A stretch of DNA of 26,719 bases from a virus (IMGVR_UViG_2718217884_000004), one strand, 5' to 3'; positions 1 to 22,248 are shown, counted from the stretch's first letter. Notes: generated by a model not told the origin, from the sequence alone. A program made the numbers and translations.

Positions 1-1284
1 TTACAGACTTCTGGAAGGTTGCGCAGCTCTTACAACACGCGGTTGATCTTCCGCGGCGTCTTCCAGCGCACTTAAATCACGGTCTTTCACTTCTGGCATT
101 TTCAGCGCAGAGATTAAACCAATCACTGAATATGCCATGATCATAATGGCGATCGGATACCAGGATTCCGTCATGGTGCAGAAAATACCCGCCAGGATAG
201 GACCAAAACCGGAAGCGATAAGACCACCAATTTCTTTAGAAATAGCCATCCGGGTAAAGCGGTTTTTACAGCCGAACATTTCTGCCATGGTAATATTTTC
301 CAGAGCAAATAATCCCAGCACCGCACAGTTATGAATCACAATCAGTGCAACCATAATGGTGCTCGGGGCATAGCTTTTATCTACGATGATAGAAAGCATT
401 GGCCATGCCAGCACAATCGCGGAGGTATTCATAATAATATACGGGATCCGGCGACCAATTTTATCGGATAACCAACCAAGGAACGGAATGGTCATAAAGC
501 CGAGAATCGAACTGATCATCAATGCATCTGTTGGAATTGCTTTGTTAAACAATAACGTCTGCACTAAATAGCCCGCAAGGAAAGTCTGAATTAAACCTGA
601 GTTACCCGCCTGACCAAAACGCAGCCCTGTTGCCAGCCAGAAGGATTTGCTCTGGAACATGCTACCAGCAGGTGCAGGTTTTGCTGTCGGTTGGTTGCTG
701 TCGTTAACCTTCTCAAAAACCGGGCTTTCTTTCAGATTCATACGCAACCAGATAGCAAAGACCATCACGACAACGCTCGCCAGGAACGGTATACGCCATC
801 CCCACGCCAGCAGTTCCTCTTTACTGAGAATGAAGAACATAAAGGCCCAGATTGCCGTTGCGCTTAAAGTTCCGCAGTTAGTTCCCATAGCCACAAATGA
901 GGAGATAATTCCGCGCTTACCTTTTGGCGCATATTCCGCCAGCATCGTACCGGCACCGGAAATTTCCGCACCTGCACCCAATCCCTGAATAATACGCAGC
1001 GTCACCAGCAAGATGGGGGCAAAAACACCAATCTGTGCATAGGTCGGTAACACACCAATTAAGGTGGTACAGATCCCCATCATGGTGATGGTAATAAAGA
1101 GCACTTTTTTACGCCCTATTCTGTCGCCCATTTTGCCGAAAATAAATGCTCCGACAATACGCGCCACATAACCTGCACCGTAGGTTCCCATTGCCAGAAT
1201 TAACGCCATTGCCGTTGATGATTCAGGAAAAAATATTTCATGAAACACTAACGCTGCGCCGAGCGAATATAACTGGAAATCCAT
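1..1284 (-). CDS. ydfJ: MHS-family MFS transporter (ShiA/YdfJ-like); ORF begins inside the conserved first transmembrane segment, so the N-terminus appears removed by prophage insertion
   Basis: 427-aa ORF from the track with multiple hydrophobic segments and the MFS loop motif GKMGDRIGRKKVL. It starts MDFQLYSLGAALVF, which aligns to the WYDFLLYG region of ShiA-type transporters about 30 residues into the protein. Stop codon at 1-3. Confidence 0.8.
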   Translation of the reverse strand: MDFQLYSLGAALVFHEIFFPESSTAMALILAMGTYGAGYVARIVGAFIFGKMGDRIGRKKVLFITITMMGICTTLIGVLPTYAQIGVFAPILLVTLRIIQGLGAGAEISGAGTMLAEYAPKGKRGIISSFVAMGTNCGTLSATAIWAFMFFILSKEELLAWGWRIPFLASVVVMVFAIWLRMNLKESPVFEKVNDSNQPTAKPAPAGSMFQSKSFWLATGLRFGQAGNSGLIQTFLAGYLVQTLLFNKAIPTDALMISSILGFMTIPFLGWLSDKIGRRIPYIIMNTSAIVLAWPMLSIIVDKSYAPSTIMVALIVIHNCAVLGLFALENITMAEMFGCKNRFTRMAISKEIGGLIASGFGPILAGIFCTMTESWYPIAIMIMAYSVIGLISALKMPEVKDRDLSALEDAAEDQPRVVRAAQPSRSL

Positions 1285-1888
1285 AATTCACAGGTGTTTT
1301 TTCCCATCCTGTGGTTTCCTTGGCGTTTTCTAGGTTTTTTCAGATAGTTGCATTTTTTAAAAAGCATCCTAAGTTCGATCTCAGTGTCTATCTGGGGCCT
1401 ATTTCTGTCCCATATATGCTCCAAAAAAAACTCCCCAACAGATAAGTAGTTTTTTCATGGATTTATGCGTAAAATCAAGAACGGCTGGAAATCATTCAAT
1501 ACTCACACTATCGAAAAATTTACCAGCCAACCGCAGCACGTTCTTGCATAAGGCGTGTCTGCGGTTTTTCAACTATTCAGATACATCACTCCCATCACAT
1601 TCATTCCTCCGCATCAAAGGCATATAGGCTATATCACCTTGATATTTTTATTTTTCAGATAAAAACTGTTATCTATGTATACTTTTAAACCCAATCCGTG
1701 TAGAGTCTCTGCATAAGATAGTTTGCAGTTGCCGCTTCAGCTTGCGCCATAAACCGCCTGATTTTTGCTGCCACCTGTTAGCATTCCTGTATACCTGAAA
1801 CGACAATGTTTATCTACGAACTTTAAGAACACCCAAGATAAAAATTGTCAACTATATCATATATAACACATTACTAATTCGAGGCTAT

Positions 1889-2002
1889 ATGAACAGCATA
1901 CTGATAATCACATCTCTCCTTATCATATTCAGCATTTTTAGTCATGCCCTAATAAAATTAGGGATTGGCATATCCAATAACCCAGACAAAACCGATGTAT
2001 AA
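1889..2002 (+). CDS. Candidate small hydrophobic protein, 37 aa ([37 protein letters not shown])
   Basis: Hand-translated ORF below the track's 60-aa cutoff. GAGG at 1881-1884 sits 4 nt before the ATG; one predicted transmembrane helix followed by a polar tail. No homology support. Confidence 0.3.
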
Positions 2003-2070
2003 GTCAACATATCCTGAATCAGACATACAATATCGCAATGAAAATCAATAATATTTTAAGGAATATCTTC

Positions 2071-2304
2071 ATGAAATCAAAAGACACCCTAAAGTGGTTC
2101 CCTGCGCAGCTTCCTGAAGTAAGAATTATCCTAGGGGATGCTGTAGTGGAAGTAGCAAAACAGGGAAGACCTATCAATACCAGAACATTGCTTGATTACA
2201 TTGAAGGAAACATAAAGAAAAAATCATGGCTGGATAACAAAGAATTATTACAAACAGCGATATCAGTTCTTAAAGACAACCAAAATTTAAATGGTAAAAT
2301 GTAA
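2071..2304 (+). CDS. ydfK: Cold-shock-induced prophage protein YdfK/YnaE family (77 aa from the internal Met; track ORF extends to 2038)
   Basis: Track ORF 2038..2304. Residues from M12 (MKSKDTLKWFPAQLPEV...) match my recollection of YdfK; AAGGA precedes this ATG. Confidence 0.7.
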   Translation: MKSKDTLKWFPAQLPEVRIILGDAVVEVAKQGRPINTRTLLDYIEGNIKKKSWLDNKELLQTAISVLKDNQNLNGKM

Positions 2305-2620
2305 TATAATAAACTTACTTTTTTATCATTTTTCCACTTTAACAACATTTTGCTCCACTTTTCCACGACCAAACAACTTGAAATCTGGTTAAAATAACAC
2401 GCAACACTATTCTTCTTCCTTGAGTCCGCCCGGAACTCGAAAAACAAACCGAGTTAAAGCCATTTTTCACAAAATCGATTTTGGGTCTCACCAAAATTAC
2501 GGGGTTGCATACGCATTCGTTTATTTTCGAACGTGTACATACAAATATGCACAAAAATAATCAAAATTATTTTCTGAGATGCATTATGATATGAACACCA
2601 ATTTCGTATAGAGTCTCACT

Positions 2621-3211
2621 ATGTCTCGAATTTTTGCTTACTGTCGGATATCAACGCTGGATCAGACCACCGAAAATCAACGCCGGGAAATCGAAAGTGC
2701 AGGTTTTAAAATCAAACCTCAGCAAATAATCGAAGAACACATTAGCGGCTCAGCAGCAACCAGTGAGCGTCCTGGTTTTAACCGGTTGCTTGCTCGCCTG
2801 AAATGTGGTGATCAATTGATTGTGACAAAACTGGATCGCCTTGGTTGTAATGCAATGGATATCAGGAAAACAGTGGAACAACTGACCGAAACAGGTATCA
2901 GAGTGCATTGCTTAGCATTGGGGGGCATTGACCTGACCAGTCCAACAGGAAAAATGATGATGCAAGTAATTTCAGCAGTCGCTGAATTTGAACGAGACCT
3001 TTTACTTGAACGCACTCATTCCGGGATAGTAAGAGCCCGGGGCGCAGGGAAACGTTTTGGTCGACCACCTGTGTTAAATGAAGAACAGAAACAGGTGGTA
3101 TTCGAACGAATTAAGTCAGGTGTAAGTATAAGTGCCATTGCCCGGGAATTCAAAACCTCGCGGCAAACCATTTTAAGAGCCAAAGCAAAACTTCAGACAC
3201 CTGACATATAA
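2621..3211 (+). CDS. pinQ: Serine recombinase, DNA invertase of the Pin/Gin/Hin family
   Basis: 196-aa ORF. N-terminal resolvase catalytic domain (YCRISTLDQ with the active-site Ser) and C-terminal HTH ([18 protein letters not shown]). Called pinQ rather than pinR from the ydfK/ydfJ context. Confidence 0.9.
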
Positions 3212-3308
3212 AAAATAATCTCGGTGTGAGATGCTTTACGTCTTCCAAGCCACCTTCCTTGCCGTAAATGGAAAGATACATCTAATTATAGAATTTATAT
3301 GTTTTACC

Positions 3309-3751
3309 CTACGGCAGTGCTGGCCATTCAATATCCTGTGCAGTTGACGTATCAACACGGTTCAGCAATACCCGATACTTTTTCCATGCTTCCAGCAACG
3401 AGATTTCTTCCTCCGTTGCAATTTCCAGATCTGCAGCATCCTGAAGCGGCGCAATATGCTCACTGGCTACCTGCATCAGGCTGTTTTTTGTTTCTTCCGC
3501 CTCCCGGATCCGGAACAGTTTTTCTGCTTCCGTATCCTTCACCCAGGCTGTGCCGTTCCACTTCTGATATTCCCCTCCCGGCGATAACCAGGTAACATTT
3601 TCCGGTAACGGACCGAGTTCAGAAATAAATAACGCGTCGCCGGAAGCCACATCATAAACCGTTTTACCCCGATGATCTTCAACGAGATGCCACGATGCCT
3701 CATCACTGTTGAAAACAGCCACGAAGCCTGCCGGAATATCTGGCGGTGCAA

Positions 3752-3752
<1 letters not shown>
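3309..3752 (-). pseudogene. tfaQ: Tail fibre assembly protein Tfa, 5'-truncated (C-terminal ~147 aa retained)
   Basis: From [42 protein letters not shown] to the C-terminus the translation matches lambda-type Tfa. The upstream 70 codons of the track ORF (3309..3962) are portal-gene DNA read out of frame. Confidence 0.7.
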
Positions 3753-6482
<2,730 letters not shown>

Positions 6483-6508
<26 letters not shown>

Positions 6509-7028
6509 TCAGCAACCCCGGTATCAGTTCATCCAGCGCGGCTGCTTTGTTCATGGCTTTGATGATATCCCGTTTCAGGAAATCAACATGTCGGTTTTCC
6601 AGTTCCGGAAAACGCCGCTGCACCGACAGGGGGATCCCGTCGAGAATACTGGCAATTTCACCTGCGATCCGCGACAGCACGAAAGTACAGAATGCGGTTT
6701 CCACCACTTCAGCGGAGTCTCTGGCATTTTTCAGCTCCTGTGCGTCGGCCTGCGCACGCGTAAGTCGATGGCGTTCGTACTCAATAGTCCCTGGCTGGAG
6801 ATCTGTCTCGCTGGCCTGCCGCAGTTCTTCAACTTCCCGGCGCAGCTTTTCGTTCTCAATTTCAGCATCCCTTTCGGCATACCATCTTATAACGGCGGCA
6901 GAGTCATAAAGCACCTCATTACCCTTGCCACCGCCTCGCAGAACGGGCATTCCCTGTTCCTGCCAGTTCTGAATGGTACGGATACTCGCACCGAAAATGT
7001 CAGCCAGCTGCTTTTTGTTGACTTCCAT
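6483..7028 (-). CDS. nohA: Terminase small subunit (Nu1 homologue)
   Basis: 181-aa ORF MEVNKKQLADIFGASIRTIQNWQEQGMPVLRGGGKGNEVLYDSAAV..., matching lambda Nu1 with its N-terminal winged HTH. Confidence 0.85.
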
Positions 7029-8770: not shown

Positions 8771-9115
8771 GATGGTGTTAACTCCAGTCATCGCTGGCAC
8801 TACCACTGCTGGTTCAGAGTTAAAAAAACTATGATTTTTTTCATGATGTTACCGTAGTATGTGAGTATCCATCGAATAGACACCAAGCAAAAAAGCTCCC
8901 GAAGGAGCCTTCATTTTCACTTTTTTAAATCCAACGACAGACGGCTGGCATTTAAGTATTGTGAAATATTATCAAATGTAATCATCATTGATTTACAAAA
9001 GATACATTTTGCCCCGAAAGGATTCATGTCAGAAACATCAAAAGATGATGTTCTATACTGGGAACCATGACAACACGGGCATCTAAAGTGAATATGGTTT
9101 GTAATATTGTCTACC

Positions 9116-9328
9116 TCAAAGCGCCACTACATGAACAGCGGCAGGACCTTTAGGTCCGTTCTCAATACCAAATTCAACTTCCTGATTCTCAGTTAATGTT
9201 TTGAAATCGTTGCTCTGAATTGCTGAGAAATGGACAAACACATCTTTGCTGCCATCTTTCGGCGTGATGAAACCAAAACCTTTTTCAGGGTTAAACCATT
9301 TCACTAAACCAGTCATTTTGTTAGACAT
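9116..9328 (-). CDS. cspI: Cold shock protein, CspA family
   Basis: 70-aa [41 protein letters not shown]... with the RNP1/RNP2 motifs; long upstream leader typical of csp genes. Confidence 0.85.
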
Positions 9329-9689
9329 AATTATTACCTTTTGAAGAAATTAGCCCTTGGGCAGAATGGTCCGAAAAAAATATCAGAGAGAAAAACCAAC
9401 AAGGAAATCTCAAGAGGTACAAATAATAAAATTATAACAATGACTGCTTCAGATAAATTTGTAACAAACCAGAACACCATTAACGCATGATTAACCACCC
9501 ATAGCAAGGATTACTTTTGTAAAGAAAAACACAGCAATGAAAGAATAGCTTTATTTATTAATAAAACGTGTCATTCTGATTAAGACCTTTTATCTTACCC
9601 TTAAGATTTCAGGAATTTTGGCTCATGGAAGAGTCCTTTTTATTTAAATTTTACATTCCGCGATGTAAATGTTCCGATTTAATATTACC

Positions 9690-11092: not shown

Positions 11093-11308
11093 TTACTCTC
11101 CCCGTGCAGCCTTACGCTTGTCTTCTTTAATCTTGAAATAAAGGTTTGTCAGATACGTCAGCATGCCAAATACCAGACTACCCAATAAACCTATTGCCGC
11201 CCACTGTGAGGGCGTGACTTTATCGAGCAACTGTAAAAACCAGTAGCCAGCACTGCCTGCAGAGGTGCTGTAGGCGATGCCCGTTGTTAACTTATCCATG
11301 GATTTCAT
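11093..11308 (-). CDS. essQ: Class II holin of phage-21 S type (pinholin), dual-start motif MKSMDK
   Basis: 71 aa from the internal Met of track ORF 11093..11392: [71 protein letters not shown], with two TM segments and a charged C-terminus. Confidence 0.85.
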
Positions 11309-11498
11309 AGCCTCACCTCCGCAGATAACGGATGGTGTACACGGTTTGGTTCGAAGAAGGAAAGAAGTTACATTAGCGTAAGGCCCGAACATCTATTCAA
11401 AAAGAAAAACGCCAGCAATTATTCTGGCGTAGCTAAAAATATCGTATAATCTTACACTTCAAAAAATAACTTTATAAAATGCCATCACATCATATCTT

Positions 11499-12221
11499 CT
11501 AAGAAAATCTTGATAAATATTGGTGCGGAGGCACACCAAAATATCCTCTAAAAACACTTACAAAATATGATGCATTGTCATACCCGCATATTCCCGCCAC
11601 CTTGCCGACAGTATGGTTACTGTAGATCAATAATCTTTGCGCCATCATCATTCGTTCTTCAAGAATTAATTTACTAAACGATAATCCTTCGTCTTTTAAT
11701 TTTCTTTTTAACAAACTCTCGCTCATATATAATCTTGAAGATATATCACAAAGTCTCCATGACGCTGAGATATCCGAGTGAATAATAGCCTTAACTTTAC
11801 AACCTAAGCTATTAAGACTTCCGAACAAAAAACTTTGCACTATTTTCTCTGAAGATAAGACAGCAAGACATGCAAGTGATATTTGATTTCTAACTACATC
11901 CACGGTTTTGCTATCACAATTCAAGCATGCAACCAAGTTCTTTAACAATGAAAAATCTTCACATTCTACTATCAAGTATGACGGATAAAACCTTCTTACA
12001 GAAAAAGGTGAGAGTGTGTAGTTTTTAAAGAAATCATTAACTGTTTTCTCCTCAACATCTACGATCATTAGATGATCTGTATTTGACGAAAAAAGATCTT
12101 TTAAATTGTATTCAATGAGAACAGCATTTCCTTTTTTAAACAAAATATCTTCTTTACCAATTCGGACACCAAACGAGTTCAACACCAAAATGATAGAACA
12201 TATGTATGGCATATTATCCAC
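11499..12221 (-). CDS. AraC/XylS-family transcriptional regulator, AppY/GadX-like
   Basis: 240-aa ORF with a C-terminal AraC-type HTH (GICGYDNASYFVSVFRGYFGVPPHQY). The gene and its flanks are visibly AT-rich compared with the neighbouring phage genes. Confidence 0.8.
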   Translation of the reverse strand: MDNMPYICSIILVLNSFGVRIGKEDILFKKGNAVLIEYNLKDLFSSNTDHLMIVDVEEKTVNDFFKNYTLSPFSVRRFYPSYLIVECEDFSLLKNLVACLNCDSKTVDVVRNQISLACLAVLSSEKIVQSFLFGSLNSLGCKVKAIIHSDISASWRLCDISSRLYMSESLLKRKLKDEGLSFSKLILEERMMMAQRLLIYSNHTVGKVAGICGYDNASYFVSVFRGYFGVPPHQYLSRFS

Positions 12222-12618
12222 CTGATATCATTGGGGTTACACCAGGTAAGTATAGGTGGAAAATCAATATTCGCCAGTTCAACAATAAGGAAAATCTCAT
12301 TGCATCACAACTATAAAACCATGTGTTTAACTCACAAAAAACAAATCATTAAACTAATCTGTTATATTATAATAGCTGCGTGCAATAATAATATTATATG
12401 CTCTTAATATTCACTTGAAATATCTTCATATAAAAACAGATTGAATAAAATCTTTTGGGGCTGGTATGTTTACCAACATTAAATTGCATCTCAATGTTTT
12501 CTTTAGCGTGAACAGGATTTTTATAAAAACTGACACTATGAGCATCATAGCGTAGTTTTTACGATTGTAAATATCCTGCATACAGGAACTCATCACTTTC
12601 AGATGATATCGCATACAG

Positions 12619-13578
12619 TTAATTCACCATCAGTCTTAGAGCCAGTTCTTCCGGATAGGGATCGAAGTAATTCTGTGTAAGCAAGTAATCATTAGGATAC
12701 TCACCCAGATAATGCTTCAGCAGAGTCAACGGCGCAAGAAGAGGCAATGTGCCAAAGCGATAGTTAAGTATAACCTCGCTCAACTCTTTACGCTGGCGTG
12801 TACTTAAGTAATTACTAAAATACCCCTGTATATGCATCAGCACATTCGTGTGATTTTTACGTGATGCTGGTTTTCTGAGAATCGCCATCAGATTATCACG
12901 ATACACCTCAAAGTATGATTCAAGGTCCGCCCACTCGTGTATTGCAGCCACAAATGGTCCCATATCTTTATAGCCTGCCTGGCTATGCGCCAACAACTGA
13001 AGCTTATAACGACTATGAAAAGCTAATAACTCTCTTCTTGATAATTTCTCCTTGTAAAGGTGATTGAGCTCATGCAAAGCAAAAACTCTTTCAATAAAAT
13101 TCTCACGAAGCACTGGATCATGTAATCGCCCATCCTCTTCAACCGGTAGCCAGGAAAACTTTTCCATCAAAGTGCTCGTAAATAGTCCCACTCCATCTTT
13201 ACGACCTCGATTACCATTTTCATCATAGACACGCACGCGCTCCATGCCACAGCTGGGAGATTTAGCACAAACCACAAACCCCGATACATCCTTTAATTTG
13301 TCCATATAAGAACGACTAAACTCTGTCATTCTCTCTGTCACATCCTCATTCTGGTCGTGGCTGAAACACATCCGTATATTTCCTTGCTTCGAGCGCACAA
13401 GTCGTAGAGCAGGACGCGGAACTGGCAGCCCTATAGCCATTTCCGGACATACTGGTCTGAATGTTACCCATTCCACTAATTTGTCCATTAAAAAGTCATC
13501 TCTTTTGTGACCACCATCAAAACGAACAGCAGAACCGCCCAAACAACCGCTGATCCCAATCACAGGTTTTTTTATCAT
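12619..13578 (-). CDS. Two-domain protein: N-terminal DUF523 (TudS-like, putative Fe-S thiouracil desulfurase fold) fused to C-terminal DUF1722 (YbgA-like)
   Basis: 319-aa ORF with conserved Cys residues at GISGCLGG, FRPVCPE and CAKSPSCGME in the N-terminal half. Domain assignment is by recollection of family motifs, not by search. Confidence 0.65.
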   Translation of the reverse strand: MIKKPVIGISGCLGGSAVRFDGGHKRDDFLMDKLVEWVTFRPVCPEMAIGLPVPRPALRLVRSKQGNIRMCFSHDQNEDVTERMTEFSRSYMDKLKDVSGFVVCAKSPSCGMERVRVYDENGNRGRKDGVGLFTSTLMEKFSWLPVEEDGRLHDPVLRENFIERVFALHELNHLYKEKLSRRELLAFHSRYKLQLLAHSQAGYKDMGPFVAAIHEWADLESYFEVYRDNLMAILRKPASRKNHTNVLMHIQGYFSNYLSTRQRKELSEVILNYRFGTLPLLAPLTLLKHYLGEYPNDYLLTQNYFDPYPEELALRLMVN

Positions 13579-13770
13579 TTCCTCCCCCTTGACTAATTCA
13601 TTAACACATAAACTTTGTAGTGCACGGACTAAATTGCCTTTCTGGCTTCATCACTGACAATTTTTCTGTTATTGACTATTCCTAATATAGTAGGAAAGTT
13701 CTTTAAGTGATCGGTCGTACTCATCTATCTTTCATACTTACTCTCAACTATCAAAAGTACAGGATTTATT

Positions 13771-14295
13771 ATGAAGTTATGGCCTGTGTTGACTGGCATT
13801 GCACTCTCTTTCACTCTTATAGCATGTAAGGCCCCGACACCACCTAAAGGTGTGCAGCCGATTACAAATTTTGACGCCAACCGCTACCTCGGAAAATGGT
13901 ATGAAATAGCTCGCCTCGAGAACTGGTTCGAACGTGGTCTGGAACAGGTCAGCGCTACTTATGAAAAACGGAACGACGGAGGGATTCGCGTACTTAACCG
14001 TGGATACGATCCAACGAAAAACAAATGGAGCGAGAGCGAAGGTAAAGCATACTTTACTGGAGATACTAAAACTGCAGCGTTGAAAGTTTCGTTTTTTGGC
14101 CCCTTCTATGGTGGCTATAATGTAATCAAACTGGATGATGAGTATAAGTATGCTCTTGTCAGTGGTCCGAACAGAGAATACCTATGGATTCTGGCAAGGA
14201 CCCAAACTATTCCAGATAATGTAAAAGCAGACTATGTGCGTACCGCTCAAAAGTTGGGATTCAATGTCAATGAACTATTATGGGTTAAACAATAA
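13771..14295 (+). CDS. Bacterial lipocalin (Blc-like outer-membrane lipoprotein)
   Basis: 174-aa ORF with a signal peptide and lipobox (TLIAC) and lipocalin motifs (NFDANRYLGKWYEIARL; KVSFFGPFYGGYNVI...EYLWILAR). I estimate roughly 60% identity to chromosomal E. coli Blc. Confidence 0.85.
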   Translation: MKLWPVLTGIALSFTLIACKAPTPPKGVQPITNFDANRYLGKWYEIARLENWFERGLEQVSATYEKRNDGGIRVLNRGYDPTKNKWSESEGKAYFTGDTKTAALKVSFFGPFYGGYNVIKLDDEYKYALVSGPNREYLWILARTQTIPDNVKADYVRTAQKLGFNVNELLWVKQ

Positions 14296-14320
14296 AATCC
14301 CCACCCGAAATGATACTTAT

Positions 14321-14350
14321 TAGAAAAAAACCAGCCTTTGGGGAGGCTGG
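14321..14350 (-). terminator. Rho-independent terminator on the minus strand, in the tR' position about 100 nt downstream of Q
   Basis: Stem CCAGCC/GGCTGG (14331-14336 and 14345-14350) with an 8-nt loop, followed on the minus strand by a U7 run (A7 at 14324-14330 on plus). Confidence 0.5.
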
Positions 14351-14450
14351 CTAAATCAGGAAACAAGCTGTTATATGATAATAACTACGTTGCGATTCCA
14401 ACATTTAAAATGTTAGACTAATGAAAATCAGACAGCAACTTTTCCTTTAA

Positions 14451-14828
14451 TTATTTCGAACAATCAGCATCCATCTCCAATCGGAGATCCAACACCATCA
14501 GCATGCCCTCCACTACGCCCTCAGCTTTCTGGAGCATCCTGCCAACCCAACAATCAGATCGCCCATGCTTACGTGCAAGCGCCATAAAAGTCATGCCGCC
14601 GACATAATAGTCCACCAATAAATCATGTAAATCGCTGTTGTTTTTTTTCAGGCGAGCCATACATTCACAAATGATCATCGCGTCATCGTCACAGCATTGC
14701 GGACGAGATCTTACTTTTGAAGGAATTAATCCCTTAAAACCGGCGGCAATGGACGACCAGGTCACATCTTCATGATTATTAGCCGCCCATGCCCCCCAAC
14801 GCTCAAGAACCATCTGAATATCACGCAT
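14451..14828 (-). CDS. Late-gene antitermination protein Q (phage 82/21 type, QuuD-like), 125 aa from the first ATG
   Basis: [33 protein letters not shown]... with Cys-rich motifs. The track ORF starts at a TTG at 14843. Confidence 0.8.
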
Positions 14829-14845
14829 CAACTTACTCCACAAAA

Positions 14846-22190: not shown

Positions 22191-22248
22191 TTTCTGGTGA
22201 CGTTTGGCGGTATCAGTTTTACTCCGTGACTGCTCTGCCGCCCTTTTT
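22191..22248 (+). ncRNA. dicF: DicF small RNA (ftsZ and manX translational repressor) with its intrinsic terminator
   Basis: TTTCTGGTGACGTTTGGCGGTATCAGTTTTACTCCGTGACTGCTCTGCCGCCC followed by TTTTT, between ydfC and dicB. The GGCGG...CCGCC stem plus U-run forms the terminator. Ends are approximate. Confidence 0.6.

Follow-up and report, generated by a model that had tools for sequence, protein, structure and literature searches.

A probable composite cargo cassette with a predicted tRNA 4-thiouridine desulfidase in the late region of a Qin-like Escherichia coli prophage

The interval between the antiterminator gene Q and the holin gene of lambdoid phages holds different cargo in different elements: cspB/cspF in Qin of E. 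coli K-12, nmpC in DLP12, where it lies antisense between the same types of Q and holin, and psrA, stx2 and tRNAs in O157 and Shiga toxin (Stx) phages. In phiSTEC1575-Stx2k the order runs from Q through an AraC-like gene, tRNAs and stx2AB to the holin gene. Here we describe the corresponding interval of IMGVR_UViG_2718217884_000004, a viral DNA of 26,719 nucleotides (nt; the window), which carries genes for a Blc-type lipocalin (blc), a RudS-type protein (rudS) and an AraC/XylS regulator (araC). Relatives of all three products have been described. Proteins with the DUF523-DUF1722 architecture, named RudS, are [4Fe-4S] desulfidases that convert tRNA 4-thiouridine (s4U8) to uridine (Jamontas et al, NAR 2024, PMC11417400). 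RudS expression in E. coli diminishes the growth delay induced by ultraviolet A (UVA), and every variant tested, including RudS_vir (gp66 of Escherichia phage 1H12), lowered tRNA s4U in this host (PMC11417400). Among lambda-like phages of the infant gut, >50% carry blc, which has been named as a moron there (Mathieu et al, 2020, PMC6969025). In the regulator clade, described from 2011 to 2023, PatE, PsrB and AppY activate acid-resistance genes of the gadE and hdeA type, and PsrA/B repress type III secretion via GadE.

We consider it likely that the three genes of the window form a composite moron cassette in a lambdoid late region of the QuuD/EssD type, built from two parts of different origin. 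The window represents a Qin-like E. coli prophage that adjoins ydfJ and has lost most of its structural genes. Read along the minus strand, the genes are ydfU (DUF968), Q, blc (itself plus-strand), rudS, an AT-rich gap of ~400 base pairs (bp), araC, holin, ydfR, lysozyme and Rz, with spacers of 155 bp between Q and blc, 192 bp between blc and rudS, and 190 bp between araC and holin. The original prediction, made from the sequence alone, had placed three non-phage genes here, with the regulator and desulfurase-like genes on the strand of Q and holin and the lipocalin gene on the opposite one; all three open reading frames (ORFs) are intact and were found in these positions and orientations, and profile searches against Pfam and NCBIfam back the DUF523/DUF1722, lipocalin and AraC helix-turn-helix (HTH) assignments. 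It had also equated the interval with the site of stx, which agrees with the gene order of phiSTEC1575-Stx2k, and had rightly placed cspB/cspF in Qin of K-12. The guanine-plus-cytosine (GC) fraction is 0.30–0.34 over positions 11400–12600 (araC and its leader), 0.40–0.46 in rudS and blc, and 0.45–0.58 in the phage backbone; the regulator and its flanks are AT-rich, as had been stated. At the borders, Q is 86% identical in amino acid sequence to DLP12 QuuD and 79% to Q of Sakai Sp4. The holin ORF spans 11093–11392, the real start lies at 11308, where ribosome-binding site and ATG are conserved, and the product is 94% identical to K-12 EssD. The cassette is one allele of a swappable slot and, as a dispensable insert between conserved phage modules, a moron.

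This arrangement recurs widely. Among the 5,426 complete E. coli genomes searched, rudS was found in 1,135, phage-type blc in 1,134 and araC in 921, the last counted at megablast sensitivity although araC alleles are more divergent; at that sensitivity, araC accompanies rudS in ~80–85% of the rudS-positive genomes. At least 80% of a 3.9-kb query spanning Q to holin is covered in 950 genomes. Flanks of this Q/holin type match 4,876 genomes and the cassette occurs in only ~950–1,135. Prophage rudS of E. coli is always chromosomal, save for two plasmid locations. The order Q-blc-rudS-araC-holin is also present in 12 isolated phages (1H12, IdasGreatGrand and ten “Lambda_ev” phages from infant guts), and no further record with a close RudS was found among 50,697 phage records. 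All five genes occur in 69 of the 80 IMG/VR contigs retrieved with RudS, most exceptions being contig ends. Spacings in IMG/VR are fixed at 162 bp (Q-blc), 193 bp (blc-rudS, in 71/72 loci), 346 or 401 bp (rudS-araC) and 110 or 147 bp (araC-holin). The cassette resides in at least three prophage backbones (Qin-like, DLP12-like and lambda nin-type), always between a QuuD-type Q and an EssD-type holin. Its alleles fall into three lineages with synonymous divergence (dS) of up to 0.29 for rudS, 0.20 for blc and 0.57 for araC. The ratio of non-synonymous to synonymous divergence (dN/dS) is 0.06–0.28 across the three genes (rudS 0.11–0.28, araC 0.20–0.26), and all three are therefore maintained by purifying selection. 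Individual departures from the full set comprise strain EC1, in which araC is frameshifted, and locus L081, which keeps blc-rudS without araC.

Several genomes carry IS3, IS5/ISKpn26, IS903B or IS1 insertion sequences (IS) inside the cassette (H1, H2, H17, H22, H23, H26 and H68); the AT-rich spacer is a possible hotspot of insertion. One of these genomes has rudS in two pieces, annotated separately as DUF523 and YbgA. Decayed remnants were also identified (H91, H92): E. coli C41(DE3) retains only a 147-bp rudS fragment annotated as “2-thiouracil desulfurase family protein”, and a 118-bp DUF1722 fragment remains in another strain. Two short contigs of a “Candidatus Nanosynbacter” metagenome-assembled genome (MAG) carry Q-blc-rudS and rudS-araC-holin-lysozyme (L056 and L061), with products 85–98% identical to those of the E. 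coli cassette; the source of both is almost certainly phage DNA of E. coli, wrongly binned into this MAG.

In the rudS product, 2-thiour_desulf (DUF523, PF04463) covers residues 7–149 (5.8e-40) and DUF1722 (PF08349) residues 192–309 (9.4e-40), each over the full length of the profile, and K-12 YbgA shares 49% identity with the C-terminal part. Alignment to the TudS crystal structure (PDB 6Z92) matches Cys12, Cys44 and Cys110 with TudS Cys10, Cys43 and Cys104, and the CPE and SPSCG motifs correspond. Across 61 enterobacterial RudS homologues, Cys12, Cys44, Cys104 and Cys110 are invariant and Cys71 is variable. The earlier mention of four conserved cysteines in the DUF523 protein is thus literally true, and the [4Fe-4S] ligands are only Cys12, Cys44 and Cys110, the three residues also listed for RudS_vir, with numbering that is shared by RudS_ST (PMC11417400). 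Residues E46, R55, S107 and S109 are likewise invariant in the 61 homologues and equate to E51, R60, S111 and S113 of the Pseudomonas putida (KT) enzyme, a mapping made by offset from the cysteine positions rather than by alignment to the KT sequence. Mutation of any of these four abolishes the activity of P. putida RudS (PMC11417400). The window protein is 92% identical to RudS_vir, with 26 substitutions; the two are of equal length (319 residues) and share both domains, the cysteines, the catalytic Glu and Arg, the Ser-x-Ser pair and the location of their genes between blc and an AraC gene downstream of Q. By these features, the window gene is of the RudS type, and we predict that its product would erase s4U in tRNA. 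The original prediction had presented the island as the best candidate for an uncharacterised module, on the view that no described function links such a desulfurase-like enzyme to a prophage late region. This did not hold, since the function of RudS is published, and the 1H12 orthologue, in the same arrangement, was expressed in that work; the blc moron and the prophage AraC clade (PatE, PsrA/B and AppY) had also been described. The late-operon position, the linked genes and the prevalence in E. coli were not considered in that study (PMC11417400). PHROGs holds families for all three proteins, each annotated “unknown function”.

The lipocalin scores 312.6 bits against the NCBIfam Blc subfamily model NF007786 (cutoff 267), over profile positions 1–174 of 176. 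Its signal, MKLWPVLTGIALSFTLIAC followed by K, has the lipobox LIAC from residue 16 (Cys19); position +2 is Lys and an Asp retention signal is lacking, and outer-membrane sorting is predicted. Compared with E. coli Blc (b4149), it has the same Lipocalin_2 family and lipobox lipoprotein signal and a similar length (174 versus 177 residues), but the two proteins are only 59% identical and the phage gene lies antisense to a late operon. Identity is higher, 78–80%, to the products of Citrobacter and Enterobacter blc genes that neighbour rudS, and alleles of the blc morons described in PMC6969025 are 96% identical to the window Blc. An allele that is 98% identical, WP_000780581.1, sits in a cassette locus; this protein was quantified in a clinical E. 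coli proteome, where it rose 2–3-fold with meropenem and was listed as outer membrane (PMC13459554). A literature search by protein accession returned this single proteomics match, for Blc only. A bioRxiv match to “lipocalin” concerned host lipocalin-2 and was discarded as unrelated.

Chromosomal RudS, sought in one genome per bacterial species, is 66–76% identical to the phage protein in Citrobacter, Enterobacter, Leclercia, Lelliottia, Klebsiella, Kluyvera, Pectobacterium and others. In ~40 species, a blc gene 75–80% identical to the phage gene lies upstream of and divergent from rudS. Citrobacter sedlakii (L010) has blc and rudS side by side, as the phage does, divergent and separated by 188 bp. 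In Enterobacter (e.g., E. cloacae, L025 4021–6960), a divergent blc is followed by a MerR/MlrA-like regulator gene, a transthyretin/HIUase-like gene and rudS, and we found ~40 similar loci; the phage cassette and C. sedlakii differ from this arrangement in lacking both middle genes. The E. cloacae blc-rudS locus has been discussed previously (PMC11417400). Judged by this shared gene neighbourhood, the blc-rudS pair of the phage most likely derives from an Enterobacteriaceae chromosome. In contrast, araC was absent from every chromosomal blc-rudS locus examined. Because of this absence, its AT-richness and its greater divergence, the regulator was probably acquired separately, as had been suggested. 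Only the blc-rudS pair forms an ordinary chromosomal locus, and it does so in other genera. As for the proposed functional link between all three genes, the pairing of blc with rudS gains independent support from this synteny, whereas the link to araC found none.

The regulator ORF spans 11499–12221, and conserved ATG and ribosome-binding site together with PGAP annotation set its real start at 12212. A C-terminal double HTH is recognised by HTH_18 (residues 161–237, 3.1e-16) and HTH_AraC (6.1e-11). The best NCBIfam models stay far below their cutoffs (YdeO, 112 bits versus 348; GadX, 90 versus 500). Over ~233–237 residues, the protein is collinear with ECs_0287 of Sakai Sp1 (48% identity), the PsrA ORF of Sp4 (38%), GadW (33%), AppY (30%) and YdeO (29%). 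We take ECs_0287 to be PatE/Z0321, given its position in Sp1 next to thrW, the site of OI-8. By these comparisons, and with no NCBIfam equivalog cutoff reached, the regulator belongs to a known clade as a distinct paralogue and is no orthologue of a named regulator. The earlier label “AppY-like” was loose, AppY being less similar than GadW, PsrA and ECs_0287. The window protein stops six codons before the other alleles (237 versus 243 residues; 11499–11516). The psrA gene of Sp4 (ECs_1087, L068 18678–19391) is annotated with 195 residues and an upstream in-frame ATG gives a 237-residue ORF; because the latter can be aligned with both the window regulator and ECs_0287 from its first residue, the deposited start is probably too short. 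With psrA in Sp4 and the AraC-like gene in the Stx2k phage, an AraC-clade regulator in the Q-holin slot is a recurring theme.

Lysis genes of lambdoid phages depend on the late promoter PR' and on Q. Because these genes lie downstream of the cassette, the late transcript must cross blc in antisense and rudS and araC in sense orientation; Q-dependent read-through of rudS and araC, as originally proposed, would follow from this architecture. Promoters were scored by a consensus hexamer scan (matches out of 12) and terminators by a scan and folding (kcal/mol, z). By analogy with lambdoid architecture, we infer that PR' lies in the region given in Table 1. The tR'-like hairpin folds at −14.9 kcal/mol (z = −4.2) and is kept in phages 1H12 and IdasGreatGrand, which conserve the entire Q-blc spacer. 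It lies ~35 nt past the blc stop codon (14296–14352). On the plus strand, the hairpin has no U-tract and would be a poor terminator for blc, so that blc transcripts may run on antisense into Q; convergent transcription from blc and PR' could damp basal read-through toward the lysis genes. Five alleles show no change in the TTTACA/TATGAT hexamers downstream of rudS or in the distance between them. The terminator between araC and holin is conserved in all cassette alleles and absent upstream of essD and essQ in K-12, and was therefore assigned to the cargo. In a test of the cassette genes for promoters and terminators, araC showed the invariant hexamers and the conserved terminator; no confident promoter was predicted for blc or rudS, although Blc protein is detected in a lysogen.

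Other candidate signals were discarded. Divergence of the blc-rudS spacer (~9% between the window and 1H12) merely tracks that of the flanking genes and gives no sign of an operator, and the MlrA/LitR-type palindromes sought there are just short, weak inverted repeats. The hairpin after rudS is strong in the window allele (−17.6 kcal/mol, z = −6.5) and reaches only −9.3 and −4.5 kcal/mol in others, and was not retained as a conserved terminator. In the rudS-araC spacer, the window allele differs from the others by a 42-bp insertion (12426–12470 region); an ORF of 62 residues at 12426–12614 was discounted as a gene, since it is disrupted by indels in other alleles, and the spacer contains no conserved small ORF.

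Table 1. Features of the cassette and its borders in the window.
Feature	Position	Strand	Evidence and remarks
Class II holin, EssD type (P21-type), 71 residues	11093..11308	-	Phage_holin_2_1 7.5e-33; first lysis gene; downstream slot border
Intrinsic terminator between araC and holin	11399..11430	-	ACGCCAG...CUGGCGU with U-rich tail; scan; −11.3 kcal/mol
AraC/XylS regulator, PatE/PsrA/GadW/AppY clade, 237 residues	11499..12212	-	HTH_18, HTH_AraC; phrog_1450
AT-rich leader/spacer upstream of araC, ~30% GC	12213..12525	-	5-allele alignment; composition
Promoter-like TTTACA-16-TATGAT	12526..12571	-	Directly 3' of rudS stop; 10/12; overlaps A-tract/hairpin/U-tract; candidate araC promoter and/or rudS terminator
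rudS, TudS(DUF523)-DUF1722 fusion, 319 residues, predicted [4Fe-4S] tRNA 4-thiouridine desulfidase	12619..13578	-	Pfam; TudS 6Z92 alignment
Divergent blc-rudS intergenic region, 192 bp	13579..13770	.	Strong rudS Shine-Dalgarno AAGGGGGAGG
blc, outer-membrane lipocalin lipoprotein, 174 residues	13771..14295	+	Lipocalin_2 (PF08212) 7.5e-43; converges on Q, antisense to late transcript
tR'-like intrinsic terminator	14322..14352	-	9-bp GC-rich stem (GCCAGCCUC/GGCUGGU) then U7; ~100 nt downstream of Q
Candidate PR' region	14410..14479	-	TGGAGA-18-AATAAT 14479-14450 (9/12); TTGCTG-17-TAACAT 14438-14410 (7/12, read from sequence)
Q antiterminator, QuuD type, 125 residues from ATG	14451..14828	-	Phage_antitermQ 8e-51; ORF extends to TTG at 14843; upstream slot border; PGAP start from L001

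Elsewhere in the window, positions 1–7028 bear the marks of a defective prophage, with ydfJ (1–1284), pinQ (2621–3211), the terminase large subunit gene (4583–6508) and nohA (6483–7028); an ORF at 3703–4383 looks like a portal-gene remnant. A related prophage of strain 13P484A (L001) keeps the full head-tail module. At gathering thresholds, Rfam models applied to the entire window found no RNA family within the cassette, and outside it matched a cspA-type thermoregulator 5' untranslated region upstream of cspI (9089–9473, minus strand), DicF small RNA (22192–22243, plus strand) and IS009 RNA (3343–3541, minus strand). A tRNA scan found none in the window, whereas Stx and Sp4 phages carry tRNAs in the Q-holin slot. 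The serum-resistance genes orf6 and orf10 of phiv142-3 were set aside as unrelated, their primer arms failing to match the window.

We propose the following sequence of events, whose transcription steps, regulator targets and benefit to phage or host we infer. A divergent blc/rudS pair would have been captured from an Enterobacteriaceae chromosome in which both genes adjoin, and the AT-rich AraC/XylS regulator would have joined separately, bringing its promoter-like element, an AT-rich leader of ~270–325 nt and its own terminator. In the repressed prophage, the two terminators would insulate the holin gene, and Blc would be made in the lysogen from a promoter of its own. On induction, RNA polymerase modified by Q would read through tR', antisense blc, sense rudS and araC and the araC terminator into holin, and RudS and the regulator would be co-expressed with the late genes, as stx is in Stx phages. 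RudS would turn tRNA s4U8 back to uridine and so remove the near-ultraviolet photosensor behind tRNA cross-linking, growth delay and ppGpp bursts. The regulator would most likely plug into host stress regulons, our best guess being the acid fitness island (gadE/hdeA). A more specific extension, which we regard as unlikely, would make RudS a tRNA eraser coupled to the late operon: induction in nature may often be caused by sunlight, in which UVA accompanies DNA-damaging ultraviolet B, Q-dependent transcription would then flood the cell with RudS, and stripping of s4U8 from host tRNA at that moment would blunt cross-linking and the ppGpp/stringent brake and protect late protein synthesis. The blc-rudS pair would then represent a captured light and envelope stress unit.

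Several points weigh against the composite cassette as we explain it. The donor of the blc/rudS DNA was not found among the genomes searched, the best chromosomal matches (Citrobacter, Enterobacter and related genera) reaching 67–75% nucleotide identity in coding regions only; given this lack of intergenic homology, either the donor lies outside the genomes searched or the pair was captured long ago. For PR' there are two candidates, both weak by their hexamers, and the consensus scan gave no confident sigma-70 promoter (none at 9/12 or better) on either strand of the 192-bp blc-rudS spacer, so that the statement that blc has its own signals could not be confirmed by this means. The regulator is only 38–48% identical to its characterised relatives and far under the YdeO cutoff, which makes its targets a guess. 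Late expression from the defective window prophage may no longer serve a phage. Finally, RudS_vir had the weakest tRNA desulfidation among the variants despite good soluble expression, and of all RudS variants it gave a uracil auxotroph the shortest lag on 4-thiouracil (PMC11417400); by extension from these assays, tRNA may be neither the only nor the main substrate of RudS_vir. These two results, with the fully conserved TudS-type active site of the window protein, would suit an enzyme engaged mainly in TudS-like salvage or detoxification of free 4-thiouracil or 4-thio-UMP, for instance from host RNA degraded during lytic growth. We nevertheless hold such a role to be unlikely as the principal one, because all variants including RudS_vir lowered tRNA s4U (PMC11417400) and because the tRNA-binding DUF1722 domain has been kept and is as conserved across the homologues as the catalytic domain (mean identity 0.74 versus 0.69).

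Similarly improbable, in our assessment, is a single co-regulated unit in which AraC controls blc and/or rudS and replaces the MerR/LitR-type regulator of chromosomal rudS. The tight linkage seen in IMG/VR contigs and in rudS-positive E. coli genomes would fit, as would the lack from the phage cassette of the MerR/MlrA-like regulator that usually adjoins chromosomal rudS; linkage is expected anyway, however, for genes held between conserved Q and holin recombination arms. The absence of araC from every chromosomal blc-rudS locus, its different base composition and the greater divergence of its alleles (dS 0.57 versus 0.29 for rudS) speak against a unit, and so do locus L081 and the frameshift in EC1. 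Moreover, the targets of its characterised relatives PatE, PsrA/B, AppY and GadW are host loci, gadE and hdeA among them. A literature search for a link between lipocalins and the LitR light regulon gave no direct support.

A role in phage–phage conflict, with Blc blocking superinfection in the manner of Cor or Llp, or RudS altering tRNAs so as to evade or trigger tRNA-directed defence, seems very unlikely to us, the indications being circumstantial: exclusion lipoproteins are frequent among lambdoid late-region morons, and the morons of gut lambda-like phages mostly encode membrane proteins (PMC6969025). The PADLOC defence protein models gave no match at E ≤ 0.01 for the araC, rudS or blc products, and Blc exceeds its NCBIfam cutoff and has chromosomal orthologues in non-phage contexts. 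We know of no anticodon nuclease for which s4U8 is a determinant. Neutral hitchhiking DNA without function, which the defective state of the window prophage, the IS insertions and the frameshifted araC and rudS remnants might suggest, is least credible of all, given three ORFs intact in ~1,000 genomes and in plaque-forming phages, invariant catalytic residues, Blc protein that is made, and dN/dS of 0.06–0.28 at dS of up to 0.3–0.6.

The logic of the slot (stx, nmpC), the blc moron (2020), RudS and its phage orthologue (2024) and the regulator clade were already known. What seems not to have been stated before is that the three genes form one fixed cassette in the late operon, that blc-rudS has a chromosomal source, and that rudS is present in ~21% of complete E. 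coli genomes. Both the RudS paper (PMC11417400) and a 2026 review in Microbiology and Molecular Biology Reviews (MMBR) present E. coli as lacking RudS, and this absence has been used to explain its stronger near-ultraviolet growth delay compared with Enterobacter. Contrary to the published absence, an intact prophage rudS occurs in 1,135/5,426 complete genomes, and natural E. coli isolates may differ in s4U erasure and UVA response. If RudS did act as an eraser coupled to the late operon, prophage carriage would explain why strains differ in their s4U levels and in growth delay under UVA. The position of rudS in the Shiga-toxin slot of a late operon suggests a role for tRNA de-modification in lytic growth. 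The regulator, for its part, would extend the set of prophage AraC proteins (PatE, PsrA/B and AppY) that rewire acid-resistance regulons, here in commensal and extraintestinal pathogenic E. coli backgrounds.

Compared with the stx, nmpC and cspB/cspF cargo, the cassette occupies the same position, between a Q and a holin of the DLP12 types (86 and 94% identical). Its sense-strand genes rudS and araC, like stx, must be read through by Q-modified polymerase, and the antisense orientation of blc resembles that of nmpC in DLP12. The content differs, with a tRNA-modification eraser, a lipocalin and a regulator in place of a toxin, a porin or cold-shock proteins. Chromosomal rudS adjoins a MerR/LitR-type regulator gene and frequently genes for photolyase; next to the phage copy, the regulator has been lost. 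The window regulator has the size, full-length collinearity and C-terminal double HTH of PatE, PsrA/PsrB, AppY, GadW, GadX and YdeO. It is AT-rich and prophage-borne as are PatE, PsrA, PsrB and AppY, and, like psrA of Sp4, it lies on the late strand in the interval from Q to the lysis genes; in contrast to PatE, PsrA and PsrB of enterohaemorrhagic E. coli O157:H7, it is mostly found in non-enterohaemorrhagic strains without the locus of enterocyte effacement. The kind of element is unchanged by these comparisons: it is a moron cassette of described families.

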